DNA from: a virus
Length of the DNA: 30,952 nucleotides
Direction: 5' to 3' (one strand)
Virus genome (UHGV): UHGV-0110025
The notes beneath the pieces are model-generated. The model worked only from the letters and a program-made list of their open reading frames with translations, did not search any database and was not told the origin of the DNA. Positions 50 through 26,249 of the stretch are shown here, one piece after another. Position 1 is the first letter of the stretch. The number at the start of each line of letters is the position of its first letter. Both the position numbers and the translations under genes were made by a program.

Positions 50-1099
50 TTACGCAACCTCTGCCGCCACGTTGTCGCCAATACACAGTGACAACGGATT
101 CAAGGTGACAGCTTGTTCAAGATGGTCAGGAGCAAAGTGCGCATACTTCATTGTTTCACGAATATTTGCGTGACCGAGTATCTTCTGGAGTACAAGGATA
201 TTGCCGCCATTCATCATAAAATGCGCGCCAAAGGTGTGACGTAAAACGTGCGTTTTCTGCCCTTCAGTCAATTCAATGTTTGTGAGTTTGAGCATCTTCT
301 TAAAGTCCTGATAGCAGGGCTTGAACATTCTTCCCTGACGTTCGGACAACTCGTCATACAGCCATTTAGGAATCGGAACCGTGCGATTCTTCTTACCTTT
401 GGTTTTGGTGAAAGTCAGCTTGCAGGGGGAAAGTTGGGGACGTGTAAGTCTCTCAGCTTCTCCCCATCGTGCGCCAGTAGCCAGGCACACCTTAACAATC
501 ATAGTAAGATTTTCTTTGCCATATTGTTCACAGGCTCGGAACAGCTCCGGGAGCTGAGACAAAGTTAGCCAGGACATTTCTTTCTCAGCTTCTTTGAATA
601 CACGAATCCCGTCCAGTGGATTGGGTAAACTCCATTCACCTAATCGCCGCAGTTCATTGAACACAGCTTCGAGGTATTGCTGTTCGCGATTGACAGTTAT
701 AGGTTTGGCGATCCATTTCGCCGGGTCTTTGTGATAGCCGTTGTCTATTTCGCCACGTAATCGACGGTCACGGTAATGAGCCCAATCTTTAGCGGTAAGA
801 CGAGATGCAATAGGGTCGCCCAACCCGTTACATACAATTTGAAGCTTAGCTAACCGCGACTTACTGGCGACCAACGCCTGTCCATGTAAATTATGCCAAA
901 GCTGGATAATCTCACTTAAGCGTCGGCGGTCTTCTTTCTTGCCGAGCCACGGCTTATCTTCACTCTCGCTTTTCGTAAATGCTTCGAATGCCTCGGCCTC
1001 ACCTTTGGTATTGAATTGCCGACGTATTCGCCGCCCTTCTCGCCCATTAGGATAAAGCTCACATAACCATTTGCCATTTTTTTGCTTACTTATAGTCAT
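50..1099 (-). CDS. int: Tyrosine site-specific integrase (P2/186-type)
   Basis: ORF 50..1147; start taken at the second Met (ATG 1099, MTISKQKNGKW...). C-terminal catalytic region LRHTFGAHF...GHANIRETMKYAH carries the R/H-x-x-R-H...Y tyrosine-recombinase signature. Lies at the prophage edge downstream of cI as in P2. Confidence 0.9.
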   Translation of the reverse strand: MTISKQKNGKWLCELYPNGREGRRIRRQFNTKGEAEAFEAFTKSESEDKPWLGKKEDRRRLSEIIQLWHNLHGQALVASKSRLAKLQIVCNGLGDPIASRLTAKDWAHYRDRRLRGEIDNGYHKDPAKWIAKPITVNREQQYLEAVFNELRRLGEWSLPNPLDGIRVFKEAEKEMSWLTLSQLPELFRACEQYGKENLTMIVKVCLATGARWGEAERLTRPQLSPCKLTFTKTKGKKNRTVPIPKWLYDELSERQGRMFKPCYQDFKKMLKLTNIELTEGQKTHVLRHTFGAHFMMNGGNILVLQKILGHANIRETMKYAHFAPDHLEQAVTLNPLSLCIGDNVAAEVA

Positions 1100-1121
1100 A
1101 ATGTCACCGAGGCAACTCTTA

Positions 1122-1460
1122 TCATTCGCAAAGTGCTGTCGCAGCATCCATTACGGGATCCAAAGGAATTTTTACTCCTTCATAATCCGGGCTATCTTTC
1201 CAAACAGTATCAATATCGCTCCCCTCAAGCTTTCCAGACTTTACACCATCAATAGCAAACCCATTTAATGGGTATCGGTCATCTGTTGCTTTGTCGTACA
1301 CAAAGGCATATCTACCATTAACACAAGACACCGTAGCTTTTTCAAAAGTTAACGGCCAATCATCACCAAACTTAGCACCGTCTAAATCCTGTGTTTTTTC
1401 AGCGGCTGATGCACCGAAAGAAAGTGAAAGAAATAAAGCTAAAAAAAGCTTACGTTTCAT
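1122..1460 (-). CDS. Small exported protein with cleavable signal peptide (moron between cI and int)
   Basis: Start at ATG 1460 (MKRKLFLALFLSLSFGASA|AEK...), AAGGGA Shine-Dalgarno 4 nt upstream. N-terminal basic-hydrophobic-AxA signal peptide and two Cys in the mature part. Sits 8 nt after the cI stop and 22 nt before the int start, lower GC than neighbours. Confidence 0.6.
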   Translation of the reverse strand: MKRKLFLALFLSLSFGASAAEKTQDLDGAKFGDDWPLTFEKATVSCVNGRYAFVYDKATDDRYPLNGFAIDGVKSGKLEGSDIDTVWKDSPDYEGVKIPLDPVMDAATALCE

Positions 1461-4365: not shown

Positions 4366-6588
4366 TTGGCTGTTCAATTCGCTTATCCGTGGAATGCTCC
4401 ACGATCGGCTATAGCCAGCCCATACCTTACTTATAAGCAACAGCATCGCCGCGACCGTATGTTCGCGGCGATGCTGCATGCTAAAAAGGTGCTTTCTCTC
4501 CAGCCCGACTGCGTGCGGTTAGATGTTTATCGCACTGCGGCAGTGCTGGAGCAAAATCAGGGCATTCAACGAGCCAATGCCTTTTTGATCAGCTTCTGCA
4601 AAAAGGCATTGCCGCGTCTTGAATTGGTCGCAAAAAAATACGAATGCGCGGGTATCAACAGCAAGGTATCAACCTCTGTTTTTGGAAGTCATTTTGATAC
4701 CCAGCTTATGCAATATCTGGCGTCACGCATGGTTAATATGGTCGCCCGATATAACCGCCTCCCGGATATGTCGCGCGCTGATGTTGACCTGTTGGCCGCC
4801 GATATTGCTAATTTCATTCGTGGTGAACTTGCCAACATTAATGACCACGGATTCGGCGAGCTTAAAACGCTGTACACCTGGTATAATCGTGCTGGCTTTA
4901 TTTCCCTCCAGTTCAACGTTATCCCCCCCCATTGGGATCGGGTTGCAAAAAAATATGTTGGCGCGGATGAAATCGCACCGGCTATCGCCAAGATGTTTAA
5001 CGATGGGTGGTGGCGTGGTCGTTTGCGCCGGGTTGCAGCTACGTGGCGCGAACACCTGCAAATTGCAGTCGGCAACGTCAGCAAGAAAAAAAACACCTAT
5101 GCGAGTAAAAACTGCGTGACTGACTGGCGTGAACAAAAGCGCCGAACTCGTGAATTTCTCAAAGGTCTGGATCTCGAAGACGAAGACGGCAACCGTATCA
5201 GCCTGATTGAAAAATATGATGGCTCAGTTGCTAACCCTGCGATTCGCCGCTGTGAGCTCATGACTCGCATTCGTGGGTTTGAAAACATCTGTAATGAGCT
5301 CGGTTATGTCGGTGAGTTTTACACTCTGACCGCGCCGTCGAAATATCACGCCACGACTAAAGCCGGTTACCGTAACAGCAAATGGAGCGGTGCCTGCCCG
5401 GCTGACACGCAAAACTATCTAACTGATATCTGGGCGCGTATCCGTGCCAAACTGCATCGGGAAGATGTCCGTATTTTCGGTATTCGTGTCGCCGAGCCCC
5501 ATCACGACGGTACTCCACACTGGCACATGCTGATGTTCATGCTGCCGGAAGATGTTGAATATGTTCGCTCCATCGTCCGTAAATACGCGTGGAAAGAAGA
5601 CCGCCGCGAACTGAAAAGCGATAAGGCAAAAAAAGCACGTTTCCACGCCGAGTCCATTGACCCGGAGAAAGGCAGCGCAACCGGCTATGTTGCTAAATAC
5701 ATATCAAAAAATATCGACGGTTATGCTCTCGATGGTGAAACCGATAATGAAAGCGGTGAACTGCTGAAAGAGACAGCCCCCGCCGTTTCAGCATGGGCTT
5801 CGCGCTGGCACATCCGTCAGTTTCAGTTTATCGGTGGTGCGCCGGTGACGGTTTACCGTGAGTTGCGTCGCCTCGCTGATACCGAAACCGCGCACGGACT
5901 GAGCGTTGAGTTTGCCGCCGTCCATGATGCCGCCGACGCTGGTGACTGGGCTGGTTATGTTAATGCGCAGGGTGGACCGTTTGTCCGTCGCGATGATTTA
6001 CAGGTGCGCACACTGTATGAACCACGTACCGAGCTTAATCAGTACGGTGAGGAAACGGTATGTATTAAGGGGGTCTACGATTCCTCCATAGGTGCAGGTA
6101 GCCCGATTTTAACCCGGCTCACTCAGTGGAAGATTGTTCCGAAGCATGCTGTTGATTTGGCCGTTGACCTTCAGGACGGCAAAGCCGTCCCTCGGAGTTC
6201 TGTCAATAACTGTACGGGAAGTGAAAGCGATCCACCGATACTGGATTTAACAAAACCACAGAGTCGGCGCGAAAGACGAGAGCTGACCAACCGACTCAGG
6301 AAGCAAAAACCAGCAATACGGCGAAAATTCGTCCACGGAATGGATGAGCAAAACGCAGCTATAGCGAAAACTATCGACGAGATACATCTGACAACCAGCA
6401 TCACAATCAGCCGGGGCGAAGCCCTGCACCTGATGGCAGGTGGGAAAAGCTGTTTTGATGGCAAATGGCTAAGGGGAACATCCAAAGGGGAGATATTTTC
6501 CACTGTCCCATCGAACCAAGCTAAAGCTAGTAAAATCCTCAATCGTGTTGCAGCGTTGGTAGAAGCATCAAAGTTAATAGATGATTAA
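4366..6588 (+). CDS. A: Replication initiation endonuclease (P2 gpA family, rolling-circle HUH nickase)
   Basis: 740-aa ORF with a histidine-rich metal-binding region EPHHDGTPHWHMLMF and a downstream tyrosine motif GYVAKYISKN, typical of gpA initiators. Apparent TTG start at 4366 after a G-rich SD; an in-frame ATG lies at 4459. Confidence 0.9.
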   Translation: MAVQFAYPWNAPRSAIASPYLTYKQQHRRDRMFAAMLHAKKVLSLQPDCVRLDVYRTAAVLEQNQGIQRANAFLISFCKKALPRLELVAKKYECAGINSKVSTSVFGSHFDTQLMQYLASRMVNMVARYNRLPDMSRADVDLLAADIANFIRGELANINDHGFGELKTLYTWYNRAGFISLQFNVIPPHWDRVAKKYVGADEIAPAIAKMFNDGWWRGRLRRVAATWREHLQIAVGNVSKKKNTYASKNCVTDWREQKRRTREFLKGLDLEDEDGNRISLIEKYDGSVANPAIRRCELMTRIRGFENICNELGYVGEFYTLTAPSKYHATTKAGYRNSKWSGACPADTQNYLTDIWARIRAKLHREDVRIFGIRVAEPHHDGTPHWHMLMFMLPEDVEYVRSIVRKYAWKEDRRELKSDKAKKARFHAESIDPEKGSATGYVAKYISKNIDGYALDGETDNESGELLKETAPAVSAWASRWHIRQFQFIGGAPVTVYRELRRLADTETAHGLSVEFAAVHDAADAGDWAGYVNAQGGPFVRRDDLQVRTLYEPRTELNQYGEETVCIKGVYDSSIGAGSPILTRLTQWKIVPKHAVDLAVDLQDGKAVPRSSVNNCTGSESDPPILDLTKPQSRRERRELTNRLRKQKPAIRRKFVHGMDEQNAAIAKTIDEIHLTTSITISRGEALHLMAGGKSCFDGKWLRGTSKGEIFSTVPSNQAKASKILNRVAALVEASKLIDD

Positions 6589-7346: not shown

Positions 7347-7862
7347 ATGCCTGGATTCCAAAATGCACAGCAAAATCAATTTGATGATCATGCTCCAGAA
7401 ATGGAGATAAACTTAATCGTAGATGTTGCTGAGCAGCCCGTAGCCTTTACCTATCAATATAGTGAGCAAATTAGCCACCTTGCACCGCAATGTCCGCCAG
7501 CAGAAGCGATTGAATGTGACAAAGAATGCTGGCGCTTCACTCTCAATCCGATAACGGACAGTTGCTTTTGGCCTCCAAAAAGAAGGGTTCCTGAGAGGGT
7601 TGCCTCAGACAGTCAGCAGGAGTGCTCTATGTGGGCGTTGTCTATGTATGAATCAGAGCGACAAGCTGTAGTCGCTTATTCTGGGCTTTCTAAGTCAGTG
7701 AGAAATATTAAGAAAACAATTGGAGATCACCTTGCAAGAGGCACGGTAGCTTGTGGTGATGGTAGATGTATGCCTCCAAATAGAAAAGGCCATTTTGACT
7801 TTCATCCATATTTAGATACTGAGTTCCCTGATGGCTTTCAGGTAATAAGAGCATTACCATGA
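7347..7862 (+). CDS. Hypothetical Cys-rich protein, gene 1 of an accessory two-gene operon
   Basis: 171-aa ORF with strong SD, AT-rich codon usage unlike the phage backbone, several Cys pairs (CPPAEAIECDKEC ... CGDGRC). No motif I recognise. Stop overlaps the next start (ATGA at 7859-7862). Confidence 0.6.
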   Translation: MPGFQNAQQNQFDDHAPEMEINLIVDVAEQPVAFTYQYSEQISHLAPQCPPAEAIECDKECWRFTLNPITDSCFWPPKRRVPERVASDSQQECSMWALSMYESERQAVVAYSGLSKSVRNIKKTIGDHLARGTVACGDGRCMPPNRKGHFDFHPYLDTEFPDGFQVIRALP

Positions 7863-8947
7863 TAAAATTAGATGCTAAAAGAATCACTGCACCGGAGGTC
7901 GGAGATTACTCGTGGTATTCTGACTTGGTGTATTTTGATGGACCACTGATTTGTTTATTTCGAGGAAGTGGCTATAAGGATGCTCTTTATGTTTGGCTTG
8001 ATAATTCAACCAGAGCCAACCGCTGGTGTTTAATACCTGTATCAAGGTCAACTTTAGATTCCTATCTTAATCAAAGAATGAGTCTAAGAGAAATCATACA
8101 ATCAAACGAATATGTTTATATTTGCAATCACTTTGCAGAAACAGGACGAAAAAATTATAGCCGTCTGAGCGTAGATGATTTCCCTGAGGAATATATGCCT
8201 GATGCTGACTCATATTTATATGAAGAAATATGCACCGATGACGCACTATTGTTAAAGCAAGAACGCACATCTAGCTATATGCTAGGACTGGACAACCAGT
8301 TGTTTATAAATGATTTATCAGAAATTCCAAAAATTTTCGAACAATTGTATTCTTTCCACTATGGACTTGCCCACTTGGGCAGAATTTCCATTAGAAATAC
8401 CATGCTGCGATTGATGGGTAGTTGGACTGGTGGATTCTCAGCAGTAAATATTTTCACTGGTTTAAAGAATGTCATTCCTGTCCTGCACCGCCCAGAAGTT
8501 AGCTCACTTCAATATAACTCCCCCGGACATATTGAATTGAACTTGCTTCCTGACTTGGCGCAGAGCGTTCAGGATGTATCTGTTCGTGTTGAAAATGAAT
8601 TTATTTATGACCGTTTAGAGAAAATCTATAAAAACAATTACACATACTTTAAAGATAAAGATCTATCAGGTTTTGATGAGGGTGGAGGAATTGAGTTAAG
8701 GAACATCGACTCTGAAACCACAGAAAATCTTCGTAAGCGTGTTAGAATTTTCTTTAGGTGTTTAGGTTGGAAAACCTATCAAGCGCAGTTTGATATGATC
8801 GGTGCCCATCCCTTGCAGCAGTTACGCGCAGTTATGGCGTATTACAGACGCCTGAAAACATTACGAGAATATATTGTGGCAGATAAATTATTCATTGGTC
8901 ATTCGCGAGTGCCGGTAGAGCAAATTACTGTGAATACTGAAAATTAG
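7859..8947 (+). CDS. Hypothetical protein, gene 2 of an accessory two-gene operon
   Basis: 362-aa ORF translationally coupled to the upstream gene, AT-rich. No P-loop, HExxH, HIT or other motif recognised. Located between gene A and cos. Confidence 0.65.
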   Translation: MIKLDAKRITAPEVGDYSWYSDLVYFDGPLICLFRGSGYKDALYVWLDNSTRANRWCLIPVSRSTLDSYLNQRMSLREIIQSNEYVYICNHFAETGRKNYSRLSVDDFPEEYMPDADSYLYEEICTDDALLLKQERTSSYMLGLDNQLFINDLSEIPKIFEQLYSFHYGLAHLGRISIRNTMLRLMGSWTGGFSAVNIFTGLKNVIPVLHRPEVSSLQYNSPGHIELNLLPDLAQSVQDVSVRVENEFIYDRLEKIYKNNYTYFKDKDLSGFDEGGGIELRNIDSETTENLRKRVRIFFRCLGWKTYQAQFDMIGAHPLQQLRAVMAYYRRLKTLREYIVADKLFIGHSRVPVEQITVNTEN

Positions 8948-9311: not shown

Positions 9312-10316
9312 CTAATTTACATGTATGTAGAGTTCACCGTCGCCAGACCAATCGGGACACTCTAAAACAAGCCCAAACTGCTTGAATATTTCATCAATGA
9401 TTATTGTTATCTCCCGAAAATCACCAAAACCTGTAATGTGCTGGTCATTAAACTTCCCATAAAGATTCTGAAAAGCAATGCCTAATTCTGATAATTGATA
9501 TCTTATCTTTGAGTTGGATAGTGTAAGGGATAGCTTTGGATCGTATTCTTTAATATTGATGTTTAGAGAATGGACATAACCCATCGCATAAGCATAAGAG
9601 TTGATGATTAGCCTGATACGTTTTTTTACTTCGAGATACATGTCATTCAGAGAAATATTACCGTACTTATAACCCCAGATGAGTTTTTCAATCTCGTCAG
9701 ATACTTCATTTACAACAGTGTCAAGATTCTCTAAAAATAAATCAATAGTTTCTTGAGGGGCAGACCCCGAAGACATGTAATTAGCGAGATATTCAGACCA
9801 TGCACGCGTGGCTGAGATAAGAAGCGCGCTACCATACTCGTTGACTGTAAAATTTTGGGCTAAGCATGTTAGTAAGTTTTTTTCATGTACGTGCACTAAT
9901 TCATGGTGAATGCGATGGATGACTGCGAGGTATCCTTCTTCTTTCAGTTTTAAGAAGCTACCATCATTGAAAAGCTCAACAAAAAAATCAATCGATAGCA
10001 CAAGGGTATATTCTTCACATAGCCCATCATTGCCAATTTTTGTTACTAACTGCCCGACGGCTGCGCCCTGTTTGCTATTGGTAAATGAACTAGGGGATTT
10101 GTGTTGGTAAGAGGATGTTACCTTTTGAAGAGCTTCACTGAAGTTATAGGAAACAATCACGCATTTTAATTTGGAGATATCAAGATTGAGATTTTTTGTT
10201 AAAGCTCGGATAGCTTCTAGTGTGAAATTACCGATATTATTTGCTTCTTGCTCAGTAGCGAAACCTTCGAGGGTTATTTTAAAATCAGTTTCCAAAATAT
10301 TAATCTCCGCGCCCAT
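9312..10316 (-). CDS. Hypothetical protein with HExxH zinc-metallopeptidase-like motif
   Basis: 334-aa ORF, AT-rich, containing IHRIHHELVHVHEKN (HELVH = HExxH, with a second HE just downstream). Inserted between cos and Q. No strong SD at ATG 10316. Confidence 0.65.
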   Translation of the reverse strand: MGAEINILETDFKITLEGFATEQEANNIGNFTLEAIRALTKNLNLDISKLKCVIVSYNFSEALQKVTSSYQHKSPSSFTNSKQGAAVGQLVTKIGNDGLCEEYTLVLSIDFFVELFNDGSFLKLKEEGYLAVIHRIHHELVHVHEKNLLTCLAQNFTVNEYGSALLISATRAWSEYLANYMSSGSAPQETIDLFLENLDTVVNEVSDEIEKLIWGYKYGNISLNDMYLEVKKRIRLIINSYAYAMGYVHSLNINIKEYDPKLSLTLSNSKIRYQLSELGIAFQNLYGKFNDQHITGFGDFREITIIIDEIFKQFGLVLECPDWSGDGELYIHVN

Positions 10317-10393: not shown

Positions 10394-11440
10394 TTATTCT
10401 GGGTTGTCGAGGGTGTACTCTTTGAACCTGATGACCTCCATACCGAGCCAGTCGTTTACCTCCCTGAACCTATCCTGCAGGGGTGACAGCTCATTACGCA
10501 CAAATACCTTTGCCACCTTCTCAACGTCACCGAGTGAACCGATATTCTCGGGCTTGCCGCCCATGAGCTGGAACGGTACGCGGTGCGCGTCCATCAGATC
10601 GGCGGCACTGGCCTTCTTGATGTTGAAAAAGTCATCCTTTGTGGCGACCTCGCTCAGTGGCACGATTTTGATGCCGTCCGGTTTTCCGCCGGGAGCGTAG
10701 AAAAACAGGTTCTTAAAGTTGCCGAGCCCTTTTGAGTTGCGCATCGCCTCGCGCAGCGATTCGACGTCGGTCGCGCTCTGCGCCGGGTCAGTCACATACA
10801 TGATGTAACCCGCGTGCGCGCCGTTCTGATAATACTTGCGGCGGAACAGCGTCGCGGATTCATTCAGCCAGGCGGAATTTAGCGCGCTGAGATATTCGGG
10901 CAGGCCGTAAATCTCCTGATTAATGTCGGGCTCCAGCAGGTGAAACACGGTATCAGGCGCGAACTCGTGCGGCTGGGTGAAGTTTTCCACAAACCAGAAA
11001 ATCGAATCGTCGACTCCGCGTCGGGTGTATTTGGCTGGCGAGGCCAGCAGTTTGATTAACTGGCCGGTGACGCTGTGGCGCTGCTCAAGAAAGGCGTTAC
11101 CGAACACCAGATAATCGAGCGCAAAGCGGCTGAAATCCTGACGGGATAACAACGGGTGCGGAATGTAGGTGCTCGCGAGCACGTTACGCTTAACATAAAT
11201 TGGCGAGCTGTGATGCACGGCAGAGCGCAGGCTCTTTGCCAGCCCTGAGAAGCTGACCGGCGGCTCGTACCATTTGCCGTTACTGATGCACTCGACGTAA
11301 TCCAGAATGTCGCGCTTATCGAGTACCGGCACCGGCTCGCCGAAGGTGAACGCTGTCGTTTTTGGCGGTGCGCTGGCGGTCAGTTGTTGTGGTTTGCTGG
11401 CCTTTTGTGCGTTGGCTTTACGGGATTTTTGTTTACCCAT
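10394..11440 (-). CDS. Q: Portal protein (P2 gpQ family)
   Basis: 348-aa ORF on the minus strand immediately upstream of terminase P, the P2 Q-P arrangement next to cos. N-terminal basic region and overall length fit gpQ. Confidence 0.9.
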   Translation of the reverse strand: MGKQKSRKANAQKASKPQQLTASAPPKTTAFTFGEPVPVLDKRDILDYVECISNGKWYEPPVSFSGLAKSLRSAVHHSSPIYVKRNVLASTYIPHPLLSRQDFSRFALDYLVFGNAFLEQRHSVTGQLIKLLASPAKYTRRGVDDSIFWFVENFTQPHEFAPDTVFHLLEPDINQEIYGLPEYLSALNSAWLNESATLFRRKYYQNGAHAGYIMYVTDPAQSATDVESLREAMRNSKGLGNFKNLFFYAPGGKPDGIKIVPLSEVATKDDFFNIKKASAADLMDAHRVPFQLMGGKPENIGSLGDVEKVAKVFVRNELSPLQDRFREVNDWLGMEVIRFKEYTLDNPE

Positions 11441-19171: not shown

Positions 19172-19200
19172 AGGCTGGATAAACACCAGCCTTGATTTTA
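19172..19200 (+). terminator. Rho-independent terminator after gene S
   Basis: Perfect 7-bp stem AGGCTGG / CCAGCCT with a 7-nt loop (19172-19192) followed by TGATTTTAT. Sits between the convergent S and HIT-like gene 3' ends. Confidence 0.45.
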
Positions 19201-19842
19201 TAGTTTGAAATCTGCGTAATTATCAATAACCTCTAGAACACCGCTGATATTGTTATCTCTGCGCCAATTCCAATTGCCATGTATCAAATTTGCATTAGAA
19301 TAAAGATATCTAAGGAACTGAGATGGTAAGAGTGGTTTGTTGCATAAAAATTCATCATAACTATTACTCATATACCACACATATCCATTTTTAATGTCAA
19401 AACTTAAATTCTCACCTTCAATTTTCTTAAAGTTAATTTCTTTATTTAGAGCATTTTCAAACTCTTGTGTATAATAAACACAGTGTATATGAGCGTGAGA
19501 AATGCACCCTCCTGAACGATCTATATTTTCACCTGCTCCGCTTTCAAAGAAAATTAGAGATCTACCAGATTGGTGGATTATAAATTCATTAAGTTCTCGC
19601 AGAATCTCCTTGCCATTACTCCGGGTATCTCGATCAAGAGCAGCAAAGGAGTTGATATGCCGCTTAGGAATCAGCATCACATGCGAATTATTTAGCGGGC
19701 CAATACTAGGTACAATTAGAAAATCATTTGTTTCTGCAATGATATTTTTCTTGTCATTTACGATTTCATCGTATCCTTTGATAAGGCTAATGCCATTTAT
19801 TTCATCGCATATTCCACAGAACGAATTACAAGAATTATTCAC
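19198..19842 (-). CDS. HIT (histidine-triad) superfamily nucleotide hydrolase/transferase-like protein with C-terminal extension
   Basis: N-terminal CNSFCGIC, then FLIVPSIGPLNNSHVMLIPKRHI and the histidine triad SGGCISHAHIHCV, matching the Hint/HIT pattern (C-x-F-C ... H-x-L-V-I-P-K-x-H-I ... H-x-H-x-H). About 90 aa follow the triad. Apparent GTG start; AT-rich island. Confidence 0.75.
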   Translation of the reverse strand: MNNSCNSFCGICDEINGISLIKGYDEIVNDKKNIIAETNDFLIVPSIGPLNNSHVMLIPKRHINSFAALDRDTRSNGKEILRELNEFIIHQSGRSLIFFESGAGENIDRSGGCISHAHIHCVYYTQEFENALNKEINFKKIEGENLSFDIKNGYVWYMSNSYDEFLCNKPLLPSQFLRYLYSNANLIHGNWNWRRDNNISGVLEVIDNYADFKL

Positions 19843-20356
19843 GTTTATTGTCTCCTGGTTTTTTAGGGAGCAATTTTTCAGCCCAAGATGCGAGTCGGCT
19901 TAGAACTAAGTCTGAAAAATATCCTAATATAAAACAAATCGAGAATGCAATTTTGGTCTTACCATGCCCTTTAATGGAGGATACAAACGTATCCGGAGAT
20001 AATATCGTATAAGAACAAAAAGCCACTAAAGCAGCTAAGAACGGAATAAAAATCCTCCAGTAGAACTTATGGGATTCCCAAGGAAAATTATACTGATTGT
20101 TTTTCCCTCTAGCAGTTACTCTATAAAACCATTTTGCATTATACACCCACCCTCCAAAAAAACCGCCAAGAATAGAAAACAAAGATATTTTATTATTATA
20201 TGACAGCTCAAAAACAAATTGGAAAAGAAAGGCGAGAATGCAACCTATTACAAAAAGAACTATTAAATAAGCAAATTCGAATTTTATTTGTTCACAATCG
20301 TTATTAAAATAAGGCACAACCTCATCATCGCCTAAGGTTTTTTTTCTTTCAGTCAT
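19835..20356 (-). CDS. Multi-pass membrane protein, upstream partner of the HIT-like gene
   Basis: About four hydrophobic helices (FAYLIVLFVIGCILAFLFQFVF, ISLFSILGGFFGGWVY, IFIPFLAALVAFCSYTIL, IAFSICFILGYFSDLVL). Its stop overlaps the HIT-like start by 8 nt. Start taken at ATG 20356 (SD GAAGGTG 8 nt upstream); the six-frame ORF extends to 20407 (TTG), with another ATG at 20401. Confidence 0.6.
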   Translation of the reverse strand: MTERKKTLGDDEVVPYFNNDCEQIKFEFAYLIVLFVIGCILAFLFQFVFELSYNNKISLFSILGGFFGGWVYNAKWFYRVTARGKNNQYNFPWESHKFYWRIFIPFLAALVAFCSYTILSPDTFVSSIKGHGKTKIAFSICFILGYFSDLVLSRLASWAEKLLPKKPGDNKRE

Positions 20357-20532
20357 TTGCCAAACACCTTCATTTTTTACTGTGAGCCAGGGTAATTGCA
20401 TATTCAACTTGGCTATTCTAATTAATTCTCACAAGATTTCATAGATGTTGAGTAGACCTCTCAGAAGTTGTTTCATTCCTCACAGAATCCATCTCGATTG
20501 CCACTAATCTTGCCGGGCGTCATCCTTCCCAT

Positions 20533-21168
20533 ATGAAAAATCTAAATTCTTTGCAAGAAATCGCACGCGCGATCCGAAATCTCATCCGTACCGGCATCGT
20601 TAGCGACGTAGACCTCAAGGAGGGGCTATGTCGTATCCAGACCGGGGGGATGCAAACCACTTGGCTGAACTGGCTGACCACCCGAGCCGGTCGTTCGCGG
20701 ACGTGGTGGGCTCCCTCGGTCGGTGAGCAGGTTCTGCTGCTGGCAATCGGTGGCGAGCTTGATACCGCTTTCGTGCTGCCGGGTATTTTCTCCGACGATA
20801 ACCCCGCCCCGTCTGCCTCGGCGGATGCGTGGCATGTGGCTTTCCCTGATGGTGCGGTCATTGAGTACGAGCCCGAAACCGGCGCGCTGACGGTCAGCGG
20901 CATAAAAACGGCCGACGTGACGGCATCGGAGTCCATCACCGCAACCGTACCGCTGGTACTGGTGAAAGCCTCGACCAGTATCACCCTCGACACCCCGGAG
21001 GTGATTTGCACCAATAAGCTAACGACGGCGACGCTTGAGGTGCAGAAAGGCGGCAAGATGAGCGGCAATATCGAACATACCGGCGGGTCACTGTCGTCTA
21101 ATGGCAAGGTACTCCACACCCATAAACACCCGGGCGACAGCGGCGGGCAAACGGGGGCACCGTTATGA
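20533..21168 (+). CDS. V: Baseplate assembly protein V / spike (P2 gpV family)
   Basis: 211-aa ORF, first gene of the baseplate/fibre operon, with a Gly-rich C-terminus (HTHKHPGDSGGQTGAP). Confidence 0.85.
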   Translation: MKNLNSLQEIARAIRNLIRTGIVSDVDLKEGLCRIQTGGMQTTWLNWLTTRAGRSRTWWAPSVGEQVLLLAIGGELDTAFVLPGIFSDDNPAPSASADAWHVAFPDGAVIEYEPETGALTVSGIKTADVTASESITATVPLVLVKASTSITLDTPEVICTNKLTTATLEVQKGGKMSGNIEHTGGSLSSNGKVLHTHKHPGDSGGQTGAPL

Positions 21169-21512
21169 CGGCGCGCTATCAGGGGATGAACCGAAATACC
21201 GGCCTTGGCATCAGCGATACCGAGCATATCAGCCAGAGCATGCGCGATATTCTGCTGACGCCGGTCGGCTCGCGGGTGATGCGTCGTGAATATGGCTCGC
21301 TTCTGTCGGCGCTGATTGATATGCCGCAAAACCCGGCGCTCAGGCTGCAAATTATGGTGGCGTGCTATTCGGCTATCCAGAAGTGGGAGCCGCGCATCAG
21401 GCTTACATCCATCAGCTTTGAGGCCGGCGACGCTGGCGAGATGTATGTCGATATTACCGGGATGCGTACCGATACCGGTGCGTCAGTTTCAACCACTGTT
21501 TCACTGAGTTAA
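21165..21512 (+). CDS. W: Baseplate protein W (P2 gpW family)
   Basis: 115-aa ORF overlapping the V stop, in the conserved position. Confidence 0.85.
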   Translation: MTARYQGMNRNTGLGISDTEHISQSMRDILLTPVGSRVMRREYGSLLSALIDMPQNPALRLQIMVACYSAIQKWEPRIRLTSISFEAGDAGEMYVDITGMRTDTGASVSTTVSLS

Positions 21513-21518
21513 ATAACT

Positions 21519-22427
21519 ATGCCAACCGTTGACCTGAGTCAGTTACCCGTTCCCGATGTGGTTGAGGAACTGGACTATGAAACCATCCTTGCGGAACGCA
21601 AAGCGACGCTGATATCGCTCTATCCAGAAGACCAGCAGGAGGCCATTGCCCGGACGCTCACACTTGAGTCAGAGCCGGTTGTTAAGCTGCTGCAGGAAAA
21701 CGCCTACCGTGAAGTTATCTGGCGTCAGCGGGTGAACGAAGCCGCGCAGGCGGTGACGCTGGCCTACTCCGCCGGTAACGACCTCGACGTCGTAGCCGGG
21801 AACAATAATACCGAACGCCTGACCATCACCCCGGCGGATGATATCACCATCCCGCCGATACCTGCCGTTATGGAATCTGATACCGACCTGCGACTGCGCA
21901 CGCAACAGGCGTTTGAGGGATTGAGCGTGGCGGGTCCGGTCGGTGCATATGAGTATCACGGTCGCAGCGCCGACGGGCGGGTCGCTGACGTTTCGGTCGC
22001 CAGCCCGTCGCCAGCCTGCGTGACGATTACCGTGCTATCGCGTGAGGGTGACGGCACTGCCAGCCCTGAGCTACTGGCGATTGTTGATAAAGCGCTGAAC
22101 GCCGAAGATGTGCGCCCGGTGGCTGACCGGGTGACCGTCCAGTCAGCCGAGATTGTACCGTACCAGATTGACGCGACGATCTACGTTTACCCCGGCCCCG
22201 AATCTGAACCCATCAGGCAGGCGTCAGAGCAGAAGCTGCAGAGCTACATCAGCGCGCAGCACCGCCTCGGGCGTGATATCCGTCTGTCAGCCATTTATGC
22301 GGCGCTGCATGTTGAGGGGGTGCAGCGTGTCGAGCTGACATCACCGCAGGCCGACATAGTGCTGAGTAAGTCGCAGGCGTCGAACTGTACCGAGTACCAG
22401 ATAACTATCGGGGGCTCGGATGAATGA
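21519..22427 (+). CDS. J: Baseplate protein J (P2 gpJ family)
   Basis: 302-aa ORF following W, in the conserved position and size. Confidence 0.9.
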   Translation: MPTVDLSQLPVPDVVEELDYETILAERKATLISLYPEDQQEAIARTLTLESEPVVKLLQENAYREVIWRQRVNEAAQAVTLAYSAGNDLDVVAGNNNTERLTITPADDITIPPIPAVMESDTDLRLRTQQAFEGLSVAGPVGAYEYHGRSADGRVADVSVASPSPACVTITVLSREGDGTASPELLAIVDKALNAEDVRPVADRVTVQSAEIVPYQIDATIYVYPGPESEPIRQASEQKLQSYISAQHRLGRDIRLSAIYAALHVEGVQRVELTSPQADIVLSKSQASNCTEYQITIGGSDE

Positions 22428-23028
22428 CCGGCTATTACCCGTTGGCTCGTCGCCGCTGGAGGTCGCCGCCGCCGCTGCGTTCTCTGAGATTCAGCGCGTG
22501 CCGGTACCGCTACGCACCCTGTGGAACTGGCGCACCTGCCCGGTAAAGCTGCTGCCGTATCTGGCGTGGGCGCTGTCGGTCGACAGGTGGGATGAGAAAT
22601 GGCCGGAGGCGACAAAGCGCAGCGTCTGCGCGTCCTCGTTTTTCGTCCATCAGCACAAAGGCACCATCAGCGCATTGCGTCGGGTCGTCGAGCCGCTCGG
22701 CTTTCTGATTGAGGTGCGCGAGTGGTGGCAACTCGACGAGGAGCCAGGCACATTCCGCCTCGTTGTTGGCGTCCTCGACAGCGGCATCACTGACGAAATG
22801 TATCAGGAGCTTGAGCGCCTGATTGAAGACGCCAAACCGGCAAGTCGCCACCTGACCGGGCTGGCTATCAGTCTGAGCTCGACCGGCGAACTGTATGTCG
22901 GCGCGGGATGCTATCACGGCGACGCACTGACTGTTTACCCCTACACCCCCGAGGAGATTGTCGTCGGCGGTGAATATTACCCGGCCTCGGCCATCCATTT
23001 GATTGATAACCTGAGAGTAAACGCATGA
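22420..23028 (+). CDS. I: Tail/baseplate protein I (P2 gpI family)
   Basis: 202-aa ORF overlapping the J stop, preceding the tail fibre gene. Confidence 0.85.
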   Translation: MNDRLLPVGSSPLEVAAAAAFSEIQRVPVPLRTLWNWRTCPVKLLPYLAWALSVDRWDEKWPEATKRSVCASSFFVHQHKGTISALRRVVEPLGFLIEVREWWQLDEEPGTFRLVVGVLDSGITDEMYQELERLIEDAKPASRHLTGLAISLSSTGELYVGAGCYHGDALTVYPYTPEEIVVGGEYYPASAIHLIDNLRVNA

Positions 23029-23990
23029 CCGCAAAATATTTTGCCATTCTGACCAATCAGGGCGCGGCGCGGCTGGCGAACGCGGCGGCACTCGGTACCA
23101 AACTCAACCTGACGCAGATGGCCGTCGGTGATGCGAATGGTACGTTGCCGACCCCTGACCCGGCGCAGACGAAGCTCATTAACCAGAAACGCATCGCGCC
23201 GCTGAACCTGCTGACCGTTGACCCGGCCAATACCAGTCAGATTATCGCGGAACAGATTATTCCCGAGAATGAAGGTGGTTTCTGGATCCGCGAGATTGGT
23301 CTCTATGACGATGATGGTATTCTGATTGCCGTGGCGAACTGTCCGGAGACCTACAAGCCACAACTGCAGGAGGGAAGCGGTCGCACGCAGACCATTCGCA
23401 TGATTCTGATTGTGTCGAGCACATCGGCAATCACCCTGAAAATCGACCCGGCAGTCGTGCTGGCAACGCGCCAGTATGTCGACGATAAGGTTATCGAGGT
23501 GAAAGCTTATGCTGATGACCTGATGAAAAAGCATGTTGAAGCCGTAAATCCGCATAAGCAGTACCCGCTGATTGCCAACGCGCTTAAAGAAATGGTTGAT
23601 GCCGGACTGGTTGATGAGATTTTTGCAAATTTAGGGTTGGGAACAGCCGCAAAAAAAGACATTGGTACGGGGGCTAATCAGATTCCAGATATGAATAGCT
23701 TCAATGGGAGTCTTGGTACAAATGGTTACTCGAAACTGCCAAATGGGCTAATTTTTCAATGGGGATGGTTTAGTATGAAATCCACATCAGGTGCGGTTGG
23801 GACAAGCACAGTTACGCTTCCAATTGCATTCCCTGTAGCATTTTTAACGCTTACAGCTTTGTTTAGTACACAGGATCCATCAACGCGTTCAGTTGGCTTT
23901 AATACAGCACTATCGGGGAAAACAGCAATTAACTTTACATATGTTTCACCAACTGACAATTCTATTTTTTGGTTTGCGGTGGGGTGCTGA
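23025..23990 (+). CDS. H: Tail fibre protein (P2 gpH-like conserved N-terminus, short divergent C-terminal tip)
   Basis: N-terminus MTAKYFAILTNQGAARLANA... resembles gpH. At 321 aa it is much shorter than P2 H, and the last ~130 codons drop sharply in GC. Confidence 0.8.
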   Translation: MTAKYFAILTNQGAARLANAAALGTKLNLTQMAVGDANGTLPTPDPAQTKLINQKRIAPLNLLTVDPANTSQIIAEQIIPENEGGFWIREIGLYDDDGILIAVANCPETYKPQLQEGSGRTQTIRMILIVSSTSAITLKIDPAVVLATRQYVDDKVIEVKAYADDLMKKHVEAVNPHKQYPLIANALKEMVDAGLVDEIFANLGLGTAAKKDIGTGANQIPDMNSFNGSLGTNGYSKLPNGLIFQWGWFSMKSTSGAVGTSTVTLPIAFPVAFLTLTALFSTQDPSTRSVGFNTALSGKTAINFTYVSPTDNSIFWFAVGC

Positions 23991-23991
23991 G

Positions 23992-24405
23992 ATGGAAAAA
24001 ATATACTACTTTGACCCTGCAAGTCCTGGTTTCTACATCTCACCTGATAGCCCGTTAATTCCTGAAGGTTCTGTAGAAATTAGAGTCGAACAATATATGC
24101 AATATGCCGGGATTGCGTGGCCGGAAAATAAAGTATTGGGTGCTGATTCTTCGGGGCTACCTGCATGGCTGGATGCGCCACCGAAGACAAAACAAGAGAT
24201 GATTGACGAGGCAAAAGGTCGCCGGGTAAATCTGATTACCGAGGCTAAAGACGCCATTAGCCTGTGGCAGACCGAGCTGCAACTCGGCATCGTCAGCGAC
24301 GATGACAAGGCCAACCTGATTGCATGGATGAAATACATTCAGGCGCTGAACGCGGTCGACACCTCAACAGCACCGGATATCGAGTGGCCGGTAAAACCGG
24401 AATAA
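23992..24405 (+). CDS. G: Tail fibre assembly chaperone (P2 gpG / Tfa family)
   Basis: Start ATG 23992 immediately after the H stop (MEKIYYFDPASPGFY...). 137 aa. The 5' part shares the low GC of the H tip. Confidence 0.75.
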   Translation: MEKIYYFDPASPGFYISPDSPLIPEGSVEIRVEQYMQYAGIAWPENKVLGADSSGLPAWLDAPPKTKQEMIDEAKGRRVNLITEAKDAISLWQTELQLGIVSDDDKANLIAWMKYIQALNAVDTSTAPDIEWPVKPE

Positions 24406-24410
24406 CGCAA

Positions 24411-24436
24411 GGCGGGCTGATGCCCGTCTTTTTTAT
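24411..24436 (+). terminator. Rho-independent terminator after the tail fibre operon
   Basis: GGCGGGC-tgat-GCCCGTC hairpin (7 bp with one G-U pair) followed by TTTTTTAT, 6 nt after the G stop. Confidence 0.5.
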
Positions 24437-24536
24437 GATTTGTTTATGTGCCATCCCCTACCCATCGCCGATAAATAGCCCCTCAACAGACCAGCCAGGA
24501 CAATAACACTTGCCCACTAACCACGGAGTTAACCGG

Positions 24537-25715
24537 ATGAGTGATTTTCACCACGGCGTGCAGGTGCTTGAGATTAACGACGGCACCCGCGTCATTTCCA
24601 CTGTTGCAACCGCAATCGTCGGCATGGTCTGTACAGCCAGCGATGCGGATGCGGCAACCTTTCCCCTCAACGAGCCGGTACTGATTACCAATGTGCAAAG
24701 CGCCATTGCGAAAGCCGGTAAAAAAGGCACTCTGGCCGCGTCCCTGCAGGCCATCGCCGACCAGTCAAAACCTGTCACAGTTGTCGTGCGTGTTGCCGAA
24801 GGTACCGGAGAAGACGCCGAAGCGCAGACCATTTCCAATATCATCGGCGGCACGGATGAGAACGGTAAATATACCGGCATCAAGGCGCTGTTGACTGCCG
24901 AAGCAGTCACCGGCGTTAAGCCGCGCATTCTCGGCGTGCCGGGTCTCGATACCAAAGAGGTCGCAGTCGCACTTGCTTCGGTCTGTATCAGCCTGCGCGC
25001 GTTTGGTTATGTCAGCGCATGGGGTTGTAAAACCATTTCCGAGGCGATGGTCTATCGCGAGAATTTCAGCCAGCGCGAGCTGATGGTCATCTGGCCTGAT
25101 TTCCTTGCATGGGATACCACCACAAACGCCACCGCACCGGCATACGCAACTGCGCGCGCACTCGGCCTGCGTGCCTATATCGACCAGACCGTCGGCTGGC
25201 ACAAAACCCTGTCTAACGTCGGCGTGCAGGGTGTCACCGGCATCAGTGCGTCAGTGTTTTGGGATTTGCAGGCATCCGGCACCGATGCTGATCTGCTCAA
25301 CGAGGCCGGGGTCACGACACTGGTGCGTAAGGATGGCTTCCGCTTTTGGGGTAACCGCACCTGCTCTGATGACCCGCTTTTCCTGTTTGAGAACTACACC
25401 CGCACCGCGCAGGTGCTGGCCGACACGATGGCCGAGGCGCACATGTGGGCGGTCGATAAGCCCATCACCGCATCACTTATCCGTGACATTGTCGACGGCA
25501 TTAACGCCAAATTCCGCGAGCTGAAATCAAACGGCTACATCGTGGACGGTGAATGCTGGTTCGACGAGGAATCGAACGATAAGGAAACCCTCAAGGCCGG
25601 GAAACTGTATATCGACTACGACTATACACCGGTTCCACCACTGGAAAGCCTAACCCTGCGCCAGCGTATCACCGATAAATATCTGGTGGATCTGGCCGAA
25701 TCGGTCAACAGCTAA
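24537..25715 (+). CDS. FI: Contractile tail sheath protein (P2 gpFI family)
   Basis: Start at ATG 24537 (MSDFHHGVQVLEINDGTRVISTVATAIVG...) with GGAG upstream; the six-frame ORF begins at 24510. Confidence 0.9.
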   Translation: MSDFHHGVQVLEINDGTRVISTVATAIVGMVCTASDADAATFPLNEPVLITNVQSAIAKAGKKGTLAASLQAIADQSKPVTVVVRVAEGTGEDAEAQTISNIIGGTDENGKYTGIKALLTAEAVTGVKPRILGVPGLDTKEVAVALASVCISLRAFGYVSAWGCKTISEAMVYRENFSQRELMVIWPDFLAWDTTTNATAPAYATARALGLRAYIDQTVGWHKTLSNVGVQGVTGISASVFWDLQASGTDADLLNEAGVTTLVRKDGFRFWGNRTCSDDPLFLFENYTRTAQVLADTMAEAHMWAVDKPITASLIRDIVDGINAKFRELKSNGYIVDGECWFDEESNDKETLKAGKLYIDYDYTPVPPLESLTLRQRITDKYLVDLAESVNS

Positions 25716-25730
25716 GGAGCCTGAAACAAC

Positions 25731-26249
25731 ATGGCACTACCCCGCAAACTTAAATATCTGAACATGTTCAATGACGGCCTTAGCTACATGGGCGTTGTGG
25801 AATCCGTGACGCTGCCGAAGCTGACCCGCAAGCTCGAAAACTATCGCGGCGGCGGCATGAATGGCGCGGCGGCGATTGACCTTGGTCTCGACGATGATGC
25901 GCTCACCGTCGAATGGTCTGTCGGTGGCCTGCCTGATGTGGCGCTGTGGGCGCAGTACGCCGCGCCGGGTGCTGACGCAGTGCCGTTGCGTTTTGCTGGC
26001 TCTTACCAACGTGACGACACTGGCGAAATCGTGGCGGTCGAGGTGGTCATGCGTGGCCGTCATAAAGAAATCGACGGCGGCGAGAATAAGCAGGGTGAAA
26101 ACACCTCGACCAAACTGTCGACCGTATGCACCTATTACCGCCTCACGATTGATGGTAGCGACGTCATCGAAATCGACACCGTCAACATGGTTGAGAAGGT
26201 GAACGGCGTCGACCGTCTGGAACAGCACCGCCGCGCAATCGGGCTGTAA
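25731..26249 (+). CDS. FII: Tail tube protein (P2 gpFII family)
   Basis: 172-aa ORF directly after the sheath gene, in the conserved position and size. Confidence 0.9.
   Translation: MALPRKLKYLNMFNDGLSYMGVVESVTLPKLTRKLENYRGGGMNGAAAIDLGLDDDALTVEWSVGGLPDVALWAQYAAPGADAVPLRFAGSYQRDDTGEIVAVEVVMRGRHKEIDGGENKQGENTSTKLSTVCTYYRLTIDGSDVIEIDTVNMVEKVNGVDRLEQHRRAIGL

Follow-up and report, generated by a model that had tools for sequence, protein, structure and literature searches.

The tail fibre H and the assembly protein G of phage P2 were described as mosaic in a 1992 paper, as cited in PMC13100340. For the tail-fibre assembly chaperone Tfa, North et al. (2019, as cited in PMC9608196) proposed two domains, of which the variable N-terminal one attaches to the distal fibre and the conserved C-terminal one serves trimerisation. 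At the Z/fun hotspot locus of P2, fibre and Tfa genes are reported to be swapped and DNA invertases to be frequent (bioRxiv 10.1101/2024.10.15.618418). In phage Mu, the G segment is bounded by the annotated crossover sites gixL and gixR, and the record of phage 186 lists a 'Mu-like inversion crossover site' in its fibre gene K. Here, we analysed the tail-fibre locus within a stretch of DNA of 30,952 nucleotides (referred to as the window). Our findings make it very likely that a portable host-range module, consisting of the fibre tip and the N-terminal domain of Tfa (Tfa-N), was exchanged as one block within a conserved 186-like late operon.

The window represents an Escherichia coli prophage of the 186-like kind (186/P2-type, Peduoviridae). 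Its late operon gave Pfam matches to Baseplate_J, Tail_P2_I and Phage_sheath, and the gene order V-W-J-I-fibre-Tfa, followed by a terminator and then sheath and tube, is that of the Peduoviridae late tail operon. The flanking DNA is 93-98% identical to the 186-like phages 613R3, Midge, RCIP0057 and EtG (EtG 93% overall; 92-98% for the flanks of the other three in the breakpoint comparison described below). Up to ~23530, the N-terminal part of the fibre gene is also ~76% identical in nucleotides to P2-like coliphage records (KC618326.1/NC_041848.1, labelled 'Escherichia phage P2'). At the position equivalent to the terminator downstream of tfa, the 186 record has the terminator t45, with the promoter pJ after it, and ~24473-24545 is about 95% identical to the pJ-sheath start region of 186 (counted on the printed alignment). 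The features of the locus are compiled in Table 1.

Table 1 Features of the tail-fibre locus, with positions in the window.
Feature	Position	Strand	Basis and remarks
Tail-fibre gene (P2 H / 186 K homologue)	23025..23990	+	321 aa; ORF and Pfam
Constant backbone part of the fibre (baseplate-attachment domain and start of shaft, by family)	23025..23485	+	Near-identity to 613R3
Shoulder of the fibre gene: protein conserved, DNA diverged	23486..23619	+	Per-base comparison with 613R3
Degenerate Mu gix-like 26-bp crossover site (putative), TTTTTGCAAATT TA GGGTTGGGAACA	23620..23645	+	Core 23632-23633
Variable, predicted receptor-binding tip: conserved linker (..GTGANQIPDM..), then gp53-like all-beta head	23646..23987	+	GC3, homology, fold
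Predicted gp53-like all-beta head domain of the tip	23733-23987	+	AF2 model and Foldseek
Tail-fibre assembly chaperone Tfa (P2 G / Mu U family), chimeric	23992..24405	+	137 aa from ATG
Tfa N-terminal, predicted fibre-binding domain (~residues 1-70), moves with the tip, low GC	23992..24200	+	Co-variation, GC3
Tfa C-terminal conserved domain, backbone type	24201..24402	+	Right recombination junction at its start (24190-24236)
Intrinsic terminator closing the V-W-J-I-H-Tfa operon (186 t45 counterpart)	24409..24440	+	9-pair hairpin, then T-run

A preliminary description of this DNA had assigned a P2 gpH-like N-terminus to the fibre, and the Pfam search confirmed this: Phage_tail_fib (PF12571) matched residues 1-150 with an E-value of 8e-63 (211.3 bits at a gathering cut-off of 23) and was covered over model positions 1-150 of 150. 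At the C-terminus, Gp53-like_C (PF21882) matched residues 237-321 (E 7e-15; 55.8 bits at a cut-off of 24.9; model positions 1-84 of 84). The same description had remarked that the fibre has 'only 321 aa'; the length is correct, but the fibres of sibling phages have 320-326 aa, and the shortness is no truncation. Tfa matched Caudo_TAP (PF02413) with residues 28-137 (E 4e-32; 111.7 bits at a cut-off of 22.1). Its ATG, 1 nt past the fibre stop codon, was taken as the start because Tfa homologues begin with MEKIYYFD in the N-terminal alignment; the same homologue N-termini ruled out a TTG at 23893, which would open a 170-aa ORF (23893-24405). The profile of Mu protein U (5yvq_B, residues 86-175) matched exclusively the C-terminal half of Tfa, as did most PHROG Tfa families. 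Neither ORF is disrupted, the domain matches are full-length, and the reading frames run unbroken across both junctions of the module.

The limits of the module emerged from the comparison with the fibre genes of related prophages. Nucleotide homology to the backbone twins is lost between about 23611-23696 and regained at 24316-24461. Within this interval, the tip protein is 36-42% identical to those of 613R3, Midge, RCIP0057 and EtG, compared to 98% amino acid identity of the fibre N-part to 613R3, Midge and RCIP0057; the C-terminal domain is hence not conserved together with the N-terminal domain. A per-base comparison with 613R3 gave just 3 mismatches over 22900-23485, after which mismatches start at 23486, become dense from 23531 and fall mostly on third codon positions. 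The left edge of the latest exchange thus lies at 23486-23531, which displaces upstream the breakpoint at the core of the gix-like site that the BLAST ends against Midge and RCIP0057 had indicated. As the latest exchange began upstream of this site, it points to homologous recombination. The left edge forms a gradient over 23486-23631 with no sharp point, and more than one event may therefore be superimposed. On the right side, nucleotide homology to a locus of Enterobacter asburiae (L047) stops at ~24190, and that of tfa to EtG starts at 24236 (82%), to RCIP0057 at 24316 and to Midge at 24364; in the Tfa alignment, the C-terminus is of the RCIP0057 type. We accordingly placed the right junction at the start of the Tfa C-domain. 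It is this comparison with other genomes, not the base composition, that demonstrates the exchange.

The chaperone itself is divided between tip and backbone. In the loci L005-7, L011 and L012, which have other backbones, the identity to the present locus amounts to 60-62% for the tip and 66-67% for Tfa-N, but drops to 37-45% for the C-terminal domain of Tfa. In the backbone twins, with their fibre N-part at 98%, the tip is at 36-42%, Tfa-N at 34% or less or undetected, and the Tfa C-domain at 43-56%. Tip and Tfa-N thus co-vary as a unit on other backbones, and the C-domain tracks the backbone. The share of the chaperone in the module comprises the N-terminal ~70 residues only, and Tfa is a chimera. 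Of the earlier proposal that the tip was acquired with its cognate chaperone, the tip and Tfa-N part is therefore borne out by co-variation, whereas the Tfa C-domain belongs to the backbone type. At the level of sequence, this modular pattern of a tip-specific variable N-domain and a conserved C-domain agrees with the model of North et al. 2019.

No donor of the module was found. In a set of 5.8 billion proteins, the closest were tip-only ORFs of E. asburiae with 84-85% amino acid identity, followed by tips at 57-62%, and GTDB representative genomes and IMG/VR held no tip above about 62%. The middle part of the module occurred in 0 of 5,426 complete E. coli genomes, though 65 share the flanks. 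For the shoulder, the best match among complete E. coli genomes reached just about 80% in nucleotides, and a plasmid search gave no match. Searches of phage records by megablast, blastn and tblastn returned no donor; a 96% match to a Logan contig (L046; 944 nt, frameshifted) represents the same phage type and is not a donor. The genomic contexts of the related cassettes differ widely. In Enterobacter ludwigii, a myovirus with Phage_Wedge1/Baseplate_J carries the cassette as a fibre of 207 aa whose N-terminus differs. In E. asburiae, a silent copy adjoins a Resolvase/HTH_7 invertase, and L047 shows a tip-Tfa / convergent Tfa' layout; L012 also carries the cassette in silent orientation. The tip allele is rare, being present in a few E. 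coli draft genomes with its nearest relatives in Enterobacter, which suggests that cassettes travel between genera. The same tip family on an unrelated myovirus backbone and in silent cassettes beside invertases likewise speaks for the swap of a putative host-range module that had been suspected before.

The deep boundary of the portable module is, by sequence, the gix-like site, which encodes ..A-N-L-G-L-G.. and lies at the constant/variable junction at fibre codon 202. The 26-bp length of such crossover sites is given in the Hin paper. Taking gix from the annotated record of Mu as the reference, we found that the site aligns column for column with gixL/gixR at the annotated boundaries of the G segment, and also with intact sites in 613R3, L011, L012 and L004. 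With 3 mismatches in its AAACC/GGTTT cores, it is probably a degenerate relic and no working site. A tblastn search of the window with two invertases from related loci found no invertase (best E = 2.9), and the window contains neither an intact or inverted partner of the single degenerate crossover site nor, anywhere, a second copy of tip or Tfa. Both an invertase remnant and a working switch were rejected after these searches, and the cassette appears to be fixed here and unable to switch. A match downstream of tfa to the end of the 613R3 'invertase' proved to be backbone intergenic DNA that the truncated 613R3 ORF reads into.

This site also underlies the strongest alternative. A tip'-Tfa' cassette may first have come into the lineage as a silent, inverted copy beside a Gin-type invertase and then have been flipped onto the constant fibre at gix; deletion would later have removed the invertase and the alternative cassette, and the site would have decayed. 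Relatives indeed hold the cassette in Gin-type invertible segments; the closest relatives of the tip are silent or invertible copies adjoining invertases, that of L012 being 75% identical to Mu Gin, and the homology to silent cassettes and to other backbones starts at the gix-like site. At the same locus, 613R3 carries an inverted Tfa'/tip' pair and a frameshifted invertase remnant, and phage 186 has its annotated fossil site. Moreover, among junctions that encode NLGLG, the AAACC/GGTTT cores are perfect in 5 of 5 cases with an invertase in the fetched locus (613R3/L001 counting with its frameshifted remnant), compared to 3 core mismatches in those without, this prophage included. This is a hint in the sequences that site integrity may track the presence of an invertase, but it comes from few loci, several of them truncated or with other site variants, and is clean only in the NLGLG-coding subset; over all loci, the mean of 2.1 vs 3.3 core mismatches (invertase present vs absent) is a weak trend. 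Against such a capture stands that the divergence from 613R3 begins 100-145 nt upstream of the core, which would not be expected from site-specific joining alone, and that the window has no invertase remnant, 24406-24460 being plain backbone common to Midge and RCIP0057. The chimeric Tfa requires a homologous crossover in any case. We therefore regard capture and subsequent locking as rather unlikely; it relates to the deeper history and can coexist with homologous recombination as the latest event.

The preliminary description had also reported a drop in GC over the last ~130 fibre codons and the start of tfa, and our quantification agrees with it. GC and third-position GC (GC3) fall from 0.54 and 0.64 in fibre codons 1-195 to 0.415 and 0.31 in codons 196-321; in tfa, they are 0.46 and 0.37 for codons 1-65 and 0.52 and 0.63 for codons 66-137. 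The neighbouring genes V, W, J, I, FI and FII have a GC3 of 0.67-0.73, the constant fibre part (23025-23485) one of 0.6-0.8, and the shoulder goes down to about 0.5. For the 700 bp at 23550-24249, the GC of 0.440 corresponds to z = -4.3 relative to 650 equal-sized windows of the structural region (mean 0.566, sd 0.029, minimum 0.497). For the module (fibre codons ~202-321 and tfa codons 1-70; 190 codons, in frame), the GC3 of 0.337 corresponds to z = -5.2 relative to 1035 backbone windows of 192 codons (mean 0.658, sd 0.062, minimum 0.458). The composition is thus clearly non-uniform. The low-GC span had been drawn as 23600-24405, and its limits have to be shifted: the dip begins with the shoulder at ~23475 and ends at ~24200, in the middle of tfa.

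A low GC content may in principle arise from amino acid composition or codon-usage needs and carry no historical meaning, and the presence of the dip in every allele of the class would allow such a cause intrinsic to the module. However, the drop affects third positions (0.31-0.37 vs 0.64-0.73), and second-position GC (GC2) is unchanged or higher; as GC2 is not lowered in the tip (0.51), amino acid composition does not explain the dip. An argument from expression is weak, since the module is co-transcribed and co-translated with operon neighbours of high GC3, and the breakpoints are independently visible in the DNA identity. We thus consider a mere coding or expression effect highly improbable. 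In 13 of 13 paired loci, the tip has a lower GC3 than the fibre N-part, and 44 tips on several backbones have a mean GC3 of about 0.42. Low GC3 is therefore common to all alleles of the module class on all backbones examined and is a signature of the cassette pool, so that a dip by itself is no proof that the event in this prophage was recent.

Receptor-binding tips are generally under diversifying selection, and synonymous changes build up gradually at the left edge; both would fit a tip that evolved rapidly in place, by such selection or by local hypermutation and with AT-biased mutation lowering the GC, with no exchange at all. This is barely conceivable, however, given that flanks up to about 99-100% identical to 613R3 adjoin a tip protein at ~40%, a step whose size and abruptness exceed what clock-like divergence would give. 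Moreover, the pair of tip and Tfa-N recurs at 60-85% identity on unrelated backbones and in silent cassettes, and the intact fibre and tfa ORFs with their full-length domain matches also argue against it. That an assembly chimera or sequencing artefact joined two prophages has a negligible chance, even though contigs often break at tail-fibre repeats and L004 and L047 end at the cassette: the exact 321-aa fibre is found on 23 and the exact 137-aa Tfa on 22 E. coli draft contigs from several sources, the longest of 564 kb, and the frames are intact over both junctions.

To characterise the tip head, we used an AF2 monomer model, in which the head had a pLDDT of about 85-93. Foldseek matched the modelled head to 4mtm (AP22 gp53; E 6.5e-7) and to the R1/R2 pyocin fibres 6cl6, 6cl5, 6ct8 and 6cxb, with E-values of 6e-7 to 7e-6 in all, TM about 0.6 and 22-29% identity; phmmer of the tip against 4mtm gave E 8e-6. 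The head is accordingly predicted to have the AP22 gp53 / R-pyocin fibre fold.

In the exchange of tip and Tfa-N as one block, which we favour, the module would extend from fibre codon 202 (the N-L-G-L-G junction) to codon 321 and through Tfa residues ~1-70, so that a low-GC block of about 0.6-0.75 kb would be replaced jointly. Judging from the protein families, the constant N-terminal fibre domain would plug into the baseplate, and the tip would form a trimer whose lectin-type all-beta head may bind to a receptor on the cell surface, for which a saccharide is the likeliest candidate. The N-domain of Tfa would recognise its particular tip, and the conserved C-domain would drive trimerisation from the C-terminus onward; tip and Tfa-N would therefore have to be exchanged together. 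In the latest event, a block of ~750 bp (~23486 to 24190-24236) was probably received from a related fibre gene by homologous recombination, with the left crossover within the conserved end of the constant fibre region and the right one at the boundary between the N- and C-domains of Tfa, giving rise to the chimeric protein. On a deeper level, the cassette is one of a pool also found in Gin-type invertible segments, its 5' edge being a now-degenerate gix-like site. A wider scenario is speculative and we think it improbable: the tip and Tfa-N cassettes of enterobacterial myoviruses might form one shared and compositionally distinct pool, with gix-type NLGLG sites as joining points similar to integron attachment sites and Gin-type invertases capturing cassettes and distributing them between genomes. 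Low GC3 would then be kept by long untranslated residence in silent form, and lineages that have lost their invertase, this prophage among them, would erode the site synonymously.

The exchange of the tip is real but ordinary, as it follows a well-documented phage route to a change of host range. Fibre mosaicism, chaperones that are cognate to the fibre, invertible segments and, in phage 186, a fossil crossover site have all been documented before, so that the locus holds nothing conceptually new; the tip belongs to a known kind, of which it is a rare allele. What the analysis adds is that the putative re-targeting unit of a short-fibred 186-like phage or tailocin can be bounded to within a few tens of bases, from the N-L-G-L-G of the fibre to about residue 70 of Tfa, and that the Tfa C-domain can remain with the backbone. 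This may be of use for predicting host range from prophage sequences and for fibre engineering, although the practical value is modest.

Among the known systems, phage 186 (NC_001317) shares the synteny of V-W-J-I-fibre-Tfa, terminator, late promoter and sheath, and in its fibre gene the change from constant to variable sequence likewise coincides with a 26-bp fossil crossover site that has no invertase. Phage 186 differs by a K protein of 462 aa with a longer, different distal part and by a different Tfa, and the DNA identity is just about 84% over 57% of the region. In phage 186, the GC3 dip is limited to the N-terminal part of Tfa. With the Mu G segment (S/U and S'/U', Gin, gix), the present locus has in common a junction homologous to gix and the pairing of a variable fibre part with Tfa, and relatives of the cassette have invertases 75% identical to Gin; unlike in Mu, the AAACC/GGTTT cores are lost here, together with the invertase, the second site and the alternative cassette. 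Mu Tfa (protein U) with its fibre tip (PDB 5YVQ; North et al. 2019) is a comparable two-domain chaperone and matches the C-terminal half of the present Tfa, whereas Tfa-N is devoid of a detectable sequence match, and its binding to the tip is predicted by analogy. AP22 gp53 and the R1/R2 pyocin fibres, to which the tip head is related by its predicted fold, belong to different hosts and have low sequence identity, and the pyocin fibres are much longer. P2 H, at 669 aa, is about twice as long as the present fibre. The tip family of H is different, the present allele being a short fibre with a gp53-like head; H and G nevertheless share with our locus the conserved N-terminal fibre domain, the exchangeable distal part and the adjoining Tfa at the same place in the genome.

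The window is a P2/186-type (Peduoviridae) prophage. Across 21500-25800 it is 98.4% identical in DNA to Escherichia phage vB_EcoM-613R3 (613R3), and for phages Midge, RCIP0057 and EtG the figure is 93-94%; each of these matches covers only ~80% of the stretch, and the uncovered part is the swapped segment. A few draft assemblies of E. coli encode the exact fibre protein, on 23 contigs, and the exact tail-fibre assembly chaperone (Tfa), on 22, which identifies E. coli as the host. A terminator hairpin (24409-24430) lies directly 3' of Tfa, and the stretch leading up to the start of the sheath gene has its homologue in the t45-pJ region annotated in phage 186. Within it, 24473-24545, 5' of the sheath gene, shares ~95% identity with the annotated late promoter pJ region, while 24403-24472, whose counterpart in 186 holds terminator t45 and the B-protein binding site, is far less conserved.

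Backbone and late tail genes of the prophage
Feature	Position	Strand	Context
Integrase	50-1147	-	
Replication gene A	4366-6588		
Portal gene	10394-11440	-	
V	20533-21168		late tail operon
W	21165-21512		late tail operon
J	21519-22427		late tail operon
I	22420-23028		late tail operon
Fibre	23025-23990		late tail operon
Tfa	23992-24405		late tail operon; followed by sheath and tube

In BLAST comparisons with the three closest phages, homology is lost at 23611-23696 and returns at 24316-24461. Of 5,426 complete E. coli genomes, 65 contain the flanks and none the middle part. When the tip alone was used to search 5.8 billion proteins, just 37 relatives were recovered. Three of them reach 84-96%: tip-only fragments from E. 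asburiae and a read assembly with a frameshift. E. ludwigii and Serratia supply a group at 57-62%, and the remainder are at no more than 61%. No tip match above ~62% was present in GTDB representative genomes or IMG/VR. These comparisons support the preliminary description, which had proposed a horizontally acquired receptor-binding tip, with three refinements: the module holds only the N-terminal domain of Tfa, its low GC is class-wide, and the cassette comes from a pool of Gin-type invertible segments and is fixed here. A host-range effect, the receptor and the chaperone specificity of the module are presumptive.

To delimit the unit of exchange, four query pieces were compared by tblastn with 45 fetched loci. 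In the backbone twins of the window, the fibre N-part is 98% identical, compared to 36-42% for the tip, at most 34% or undetectable for the Tfa N-terminal domain (Tfa-N) and 43-56% for the C-terminal domain (Tfa-C). Loci L005-7, L011 and L012 match the tip at 60-62% and Tfa-N at 66-67%, but Tfa-C at only 37-45%. Tip and Tfa-N thus co-vary. Correspondingly, the protein alignment shows a chimeric Tfa, with residues 1 to ~72 of the L005/L011/L012 type and a C-terminus of the RCIP0057 type; the earlier assignment of a cognate chaperone to the module therefore holds for Tfa-N and not for Tfa-C, which is of the backbone type. As nucleotide homology to E. asburiae locus L047 (75-88%) fades by ~24190 and that to Tfa of the 186-like EtG sets in at 24236 (82%), the right junction is placed at 24190-24236, which is the Tfa N/C domain boundary. 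In RCIP0057 and Midge, Tfa homology begins at 24316 and 24364, respectively.

On the left, inverted repeats in 613R3, L011 and L012, together with the alignment of expressed and silent junctions, set the homology onset exactly at AAAACC-TT-GGTTTGGGA, coding for (K)NLGLG. These junction sites align column for column with gix, the crossover site of the Mu Gin invertase (TTATCCAAAACC TC GGTTTACAGGAA, taken from the annotated G-segment boundaries). The homologous 26-mer at 23620-23645 in the window (TTTTTGCAAATT TA GGGTTGGGAACA) still encodes N-L-G-L-G, and both of its core pentamers are altered. Because the window carries no invertase and no second tip or Tfa, and no further gix-like site was found near the fibre, the cassette is fixed. 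Among the exact N-L-G-L-G junctions (window 23628-23642, L001, L011, L012, L013, L018 and L039-L041; a small sample with some truncated loci), those with an invertase in the locus read AAC CTT GGT TTG GG, that is, perfect gix cores, and those without one, including the window, differ at three core bases, largely in synonymous codon positions.

The closest sibling, 613R3, is virtually identical to the window through 23485, with mismatches, mostly third-position, from 23486 that become dense from 23531. The latest exchange therefore began 100-145 nt upstream of the gix-like site, within the conserved terminal stretch of the fibre's constant part. An upstream start of this kind would be expected if a related donor fibre had recombined homologously. 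For this shoulder (23486-23619), matches in complete E. coli genomes reached 80% at most, and plasmids gave no closer one.

Relatives of the cassette occur in several settings. A 62% relative is a fibre of 207 aa whose N-terminus is unrelated; it belongs to another myovirus backbone (Sheath_initiator, Baseplate_J, Phage_Wedge1) and has Tfa downstream. An 85% relative is a tip-only ORF adjoining a Resolvase/HTH_7 invertase at a contig end, and an 84% relative is followed by Tfa and a convergent alternative Tfa'. L012 carries the cassette as the silent copy of an invertible segment, and the invertase there shares 75% identity with Mu Gin. In 613R3, the locus corresponding to that of the window (L001 3405-4557) contains Tfa' and tip' as an inverted pair, along with the remnant of an invertase that has a frameshift. 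This annotated 'DNA invertase' is truncated to ~100 codons and runs into backbone intergenic DNA; the 613R3 switch is probably dead as well. The top match to the tip in the phage collection (59% aa) lies in unannotated DNA of Cronobacter phage JK004 (MZ188976.1, 93.8 kb), whose record has five separate tip-like places, suggesting that this large phage has a shufflon-like fibre region with several cassettes.

The low GC of the fibre end and Tfa start, noted previously, was confirmed. GC3 falls from 0.64 (fibre codons 1-195) to 0.31 (196-321); within Tfa it rises from 0.37 (codons 1-65) to 0.63 (66-137), versus 0.67-0.73 in neighbouring genes; GC2 does not fall. The 700 bp of 23550-24249 have a GC of 0.440 (z = -4.3), whereas none of 650 segments of the same size in the structural region falls below 0.497, and in-frame GC3 over the 190 module codons is 0.337 (z = -5.2; backbone mean 0.658, sd 0.062, minimum 0.458). 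The dip extends from a shoulder near 23475 to near 24200, mid-Tfa. Tip and Tfa-N GC3 is likewise 0.33-0.43 in 613R3, RCIP0057, L005, L011 and L012, which carry other alleles on backbones of 0.6-0.7, and the dip is milder in Midge. Over all fetched loci, mean GC3 is lowest in Tfa-N (0.40, n = 12) and the tip (0.42, n = 44), reaches 0.475 in Tfa-C and is highest in the fibre N-part (0.64, n = 13); where tip and N-part could be paired, the tip had the lower value in all 13 of 13 loci. The dip is class-wide rather than peculiar to this prophage, and low GC marks the cassette pool; the swap is proven by the comparative breakpoints, not by composition. Low GC3 (~0.40-0.42) of tip and Tfa-N was universal over alleles and backbones in the 45 loci; it may stem from a foreign pool common to them, from time spent as silent copies that are not translated, or from another cause.

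Other low-GC islands were observed. Two genes at 7347-8947 (+) match components A and B of the anti-phage defence PD-T4-10 (PADLOC E 6.5e-69 and 3.3e-169) and sit in an interval of GC 0.37-0.43 that is flanked by replication gene A and the portal gene, the classic P2 old/tin hotspot. In the same hotspot, a 334-aa ORF (9312-10316, -) without match in Pfam or PADLOC is possibly further uncharacterised cargo. A two-gene island at 19198-20407 (-; GC 0.33-0.36), between the tail-completion genes and V, takes the position of P2 orf30. It encodes a 214-aa protein with weak HIT/DcpS_C/CwfJ_C matches (E 1e-6 to 1e-4; PHROG 23000) and a 190-aa protein without Pfam match (PHROG 22917). As neither ORF has a PADLOC match, they are a candidate uncharacterised accessory or defence pair.

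The fibre has the P2 gpH-like N-terminus described earlier (PF12571, residues 1-150) and a C-terminal Gp53-like domain (PF21882, residues 237-321). Its length of 321 aa is correct, but its shortness is a lineage trait, as sibling fibres have 320-326 aa. The AlphaFold model of residues 191-321 is confident over an all-beta head (pLDDT ~85-93), for which Foldseek gives matches at E 6e-7 to 7e-6 to the fibres of AP22 (gp53, 4mtm) and of the R1/R2 pyocins; the head also resembles H-type lectins weakly. Tfa has a Caudo_TAP match, and its similarity to Mu protein U (5yvq_B residues 86-175) and to most Tfa families is confined to the C-terminal half. The tip/Tfa-N unit agrees with the Tfa model of North et al. 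2019, as summarised in PMC9608196, in which a variable N-domain binds the distal fibre and a conserved C-domain mediates trimerisation. That P2 fibre genes move horizontally (Haggard-Ljungquist et al. 1992, as cited in PMC13100340) and that fibre and Tfa genes are swapped at this P2 locus, where invertases are frequent (bioRxiv 10.1101/2024.10.15.618418), has been described; the module seen here is of a known kind, and its allele is rare and new. In the reference record of phage 186, the corresponding point of the fibre gene already bears the annotation 'Mu-like inversion crossover site', and the relic in the window is thus a known feature of the type phage.
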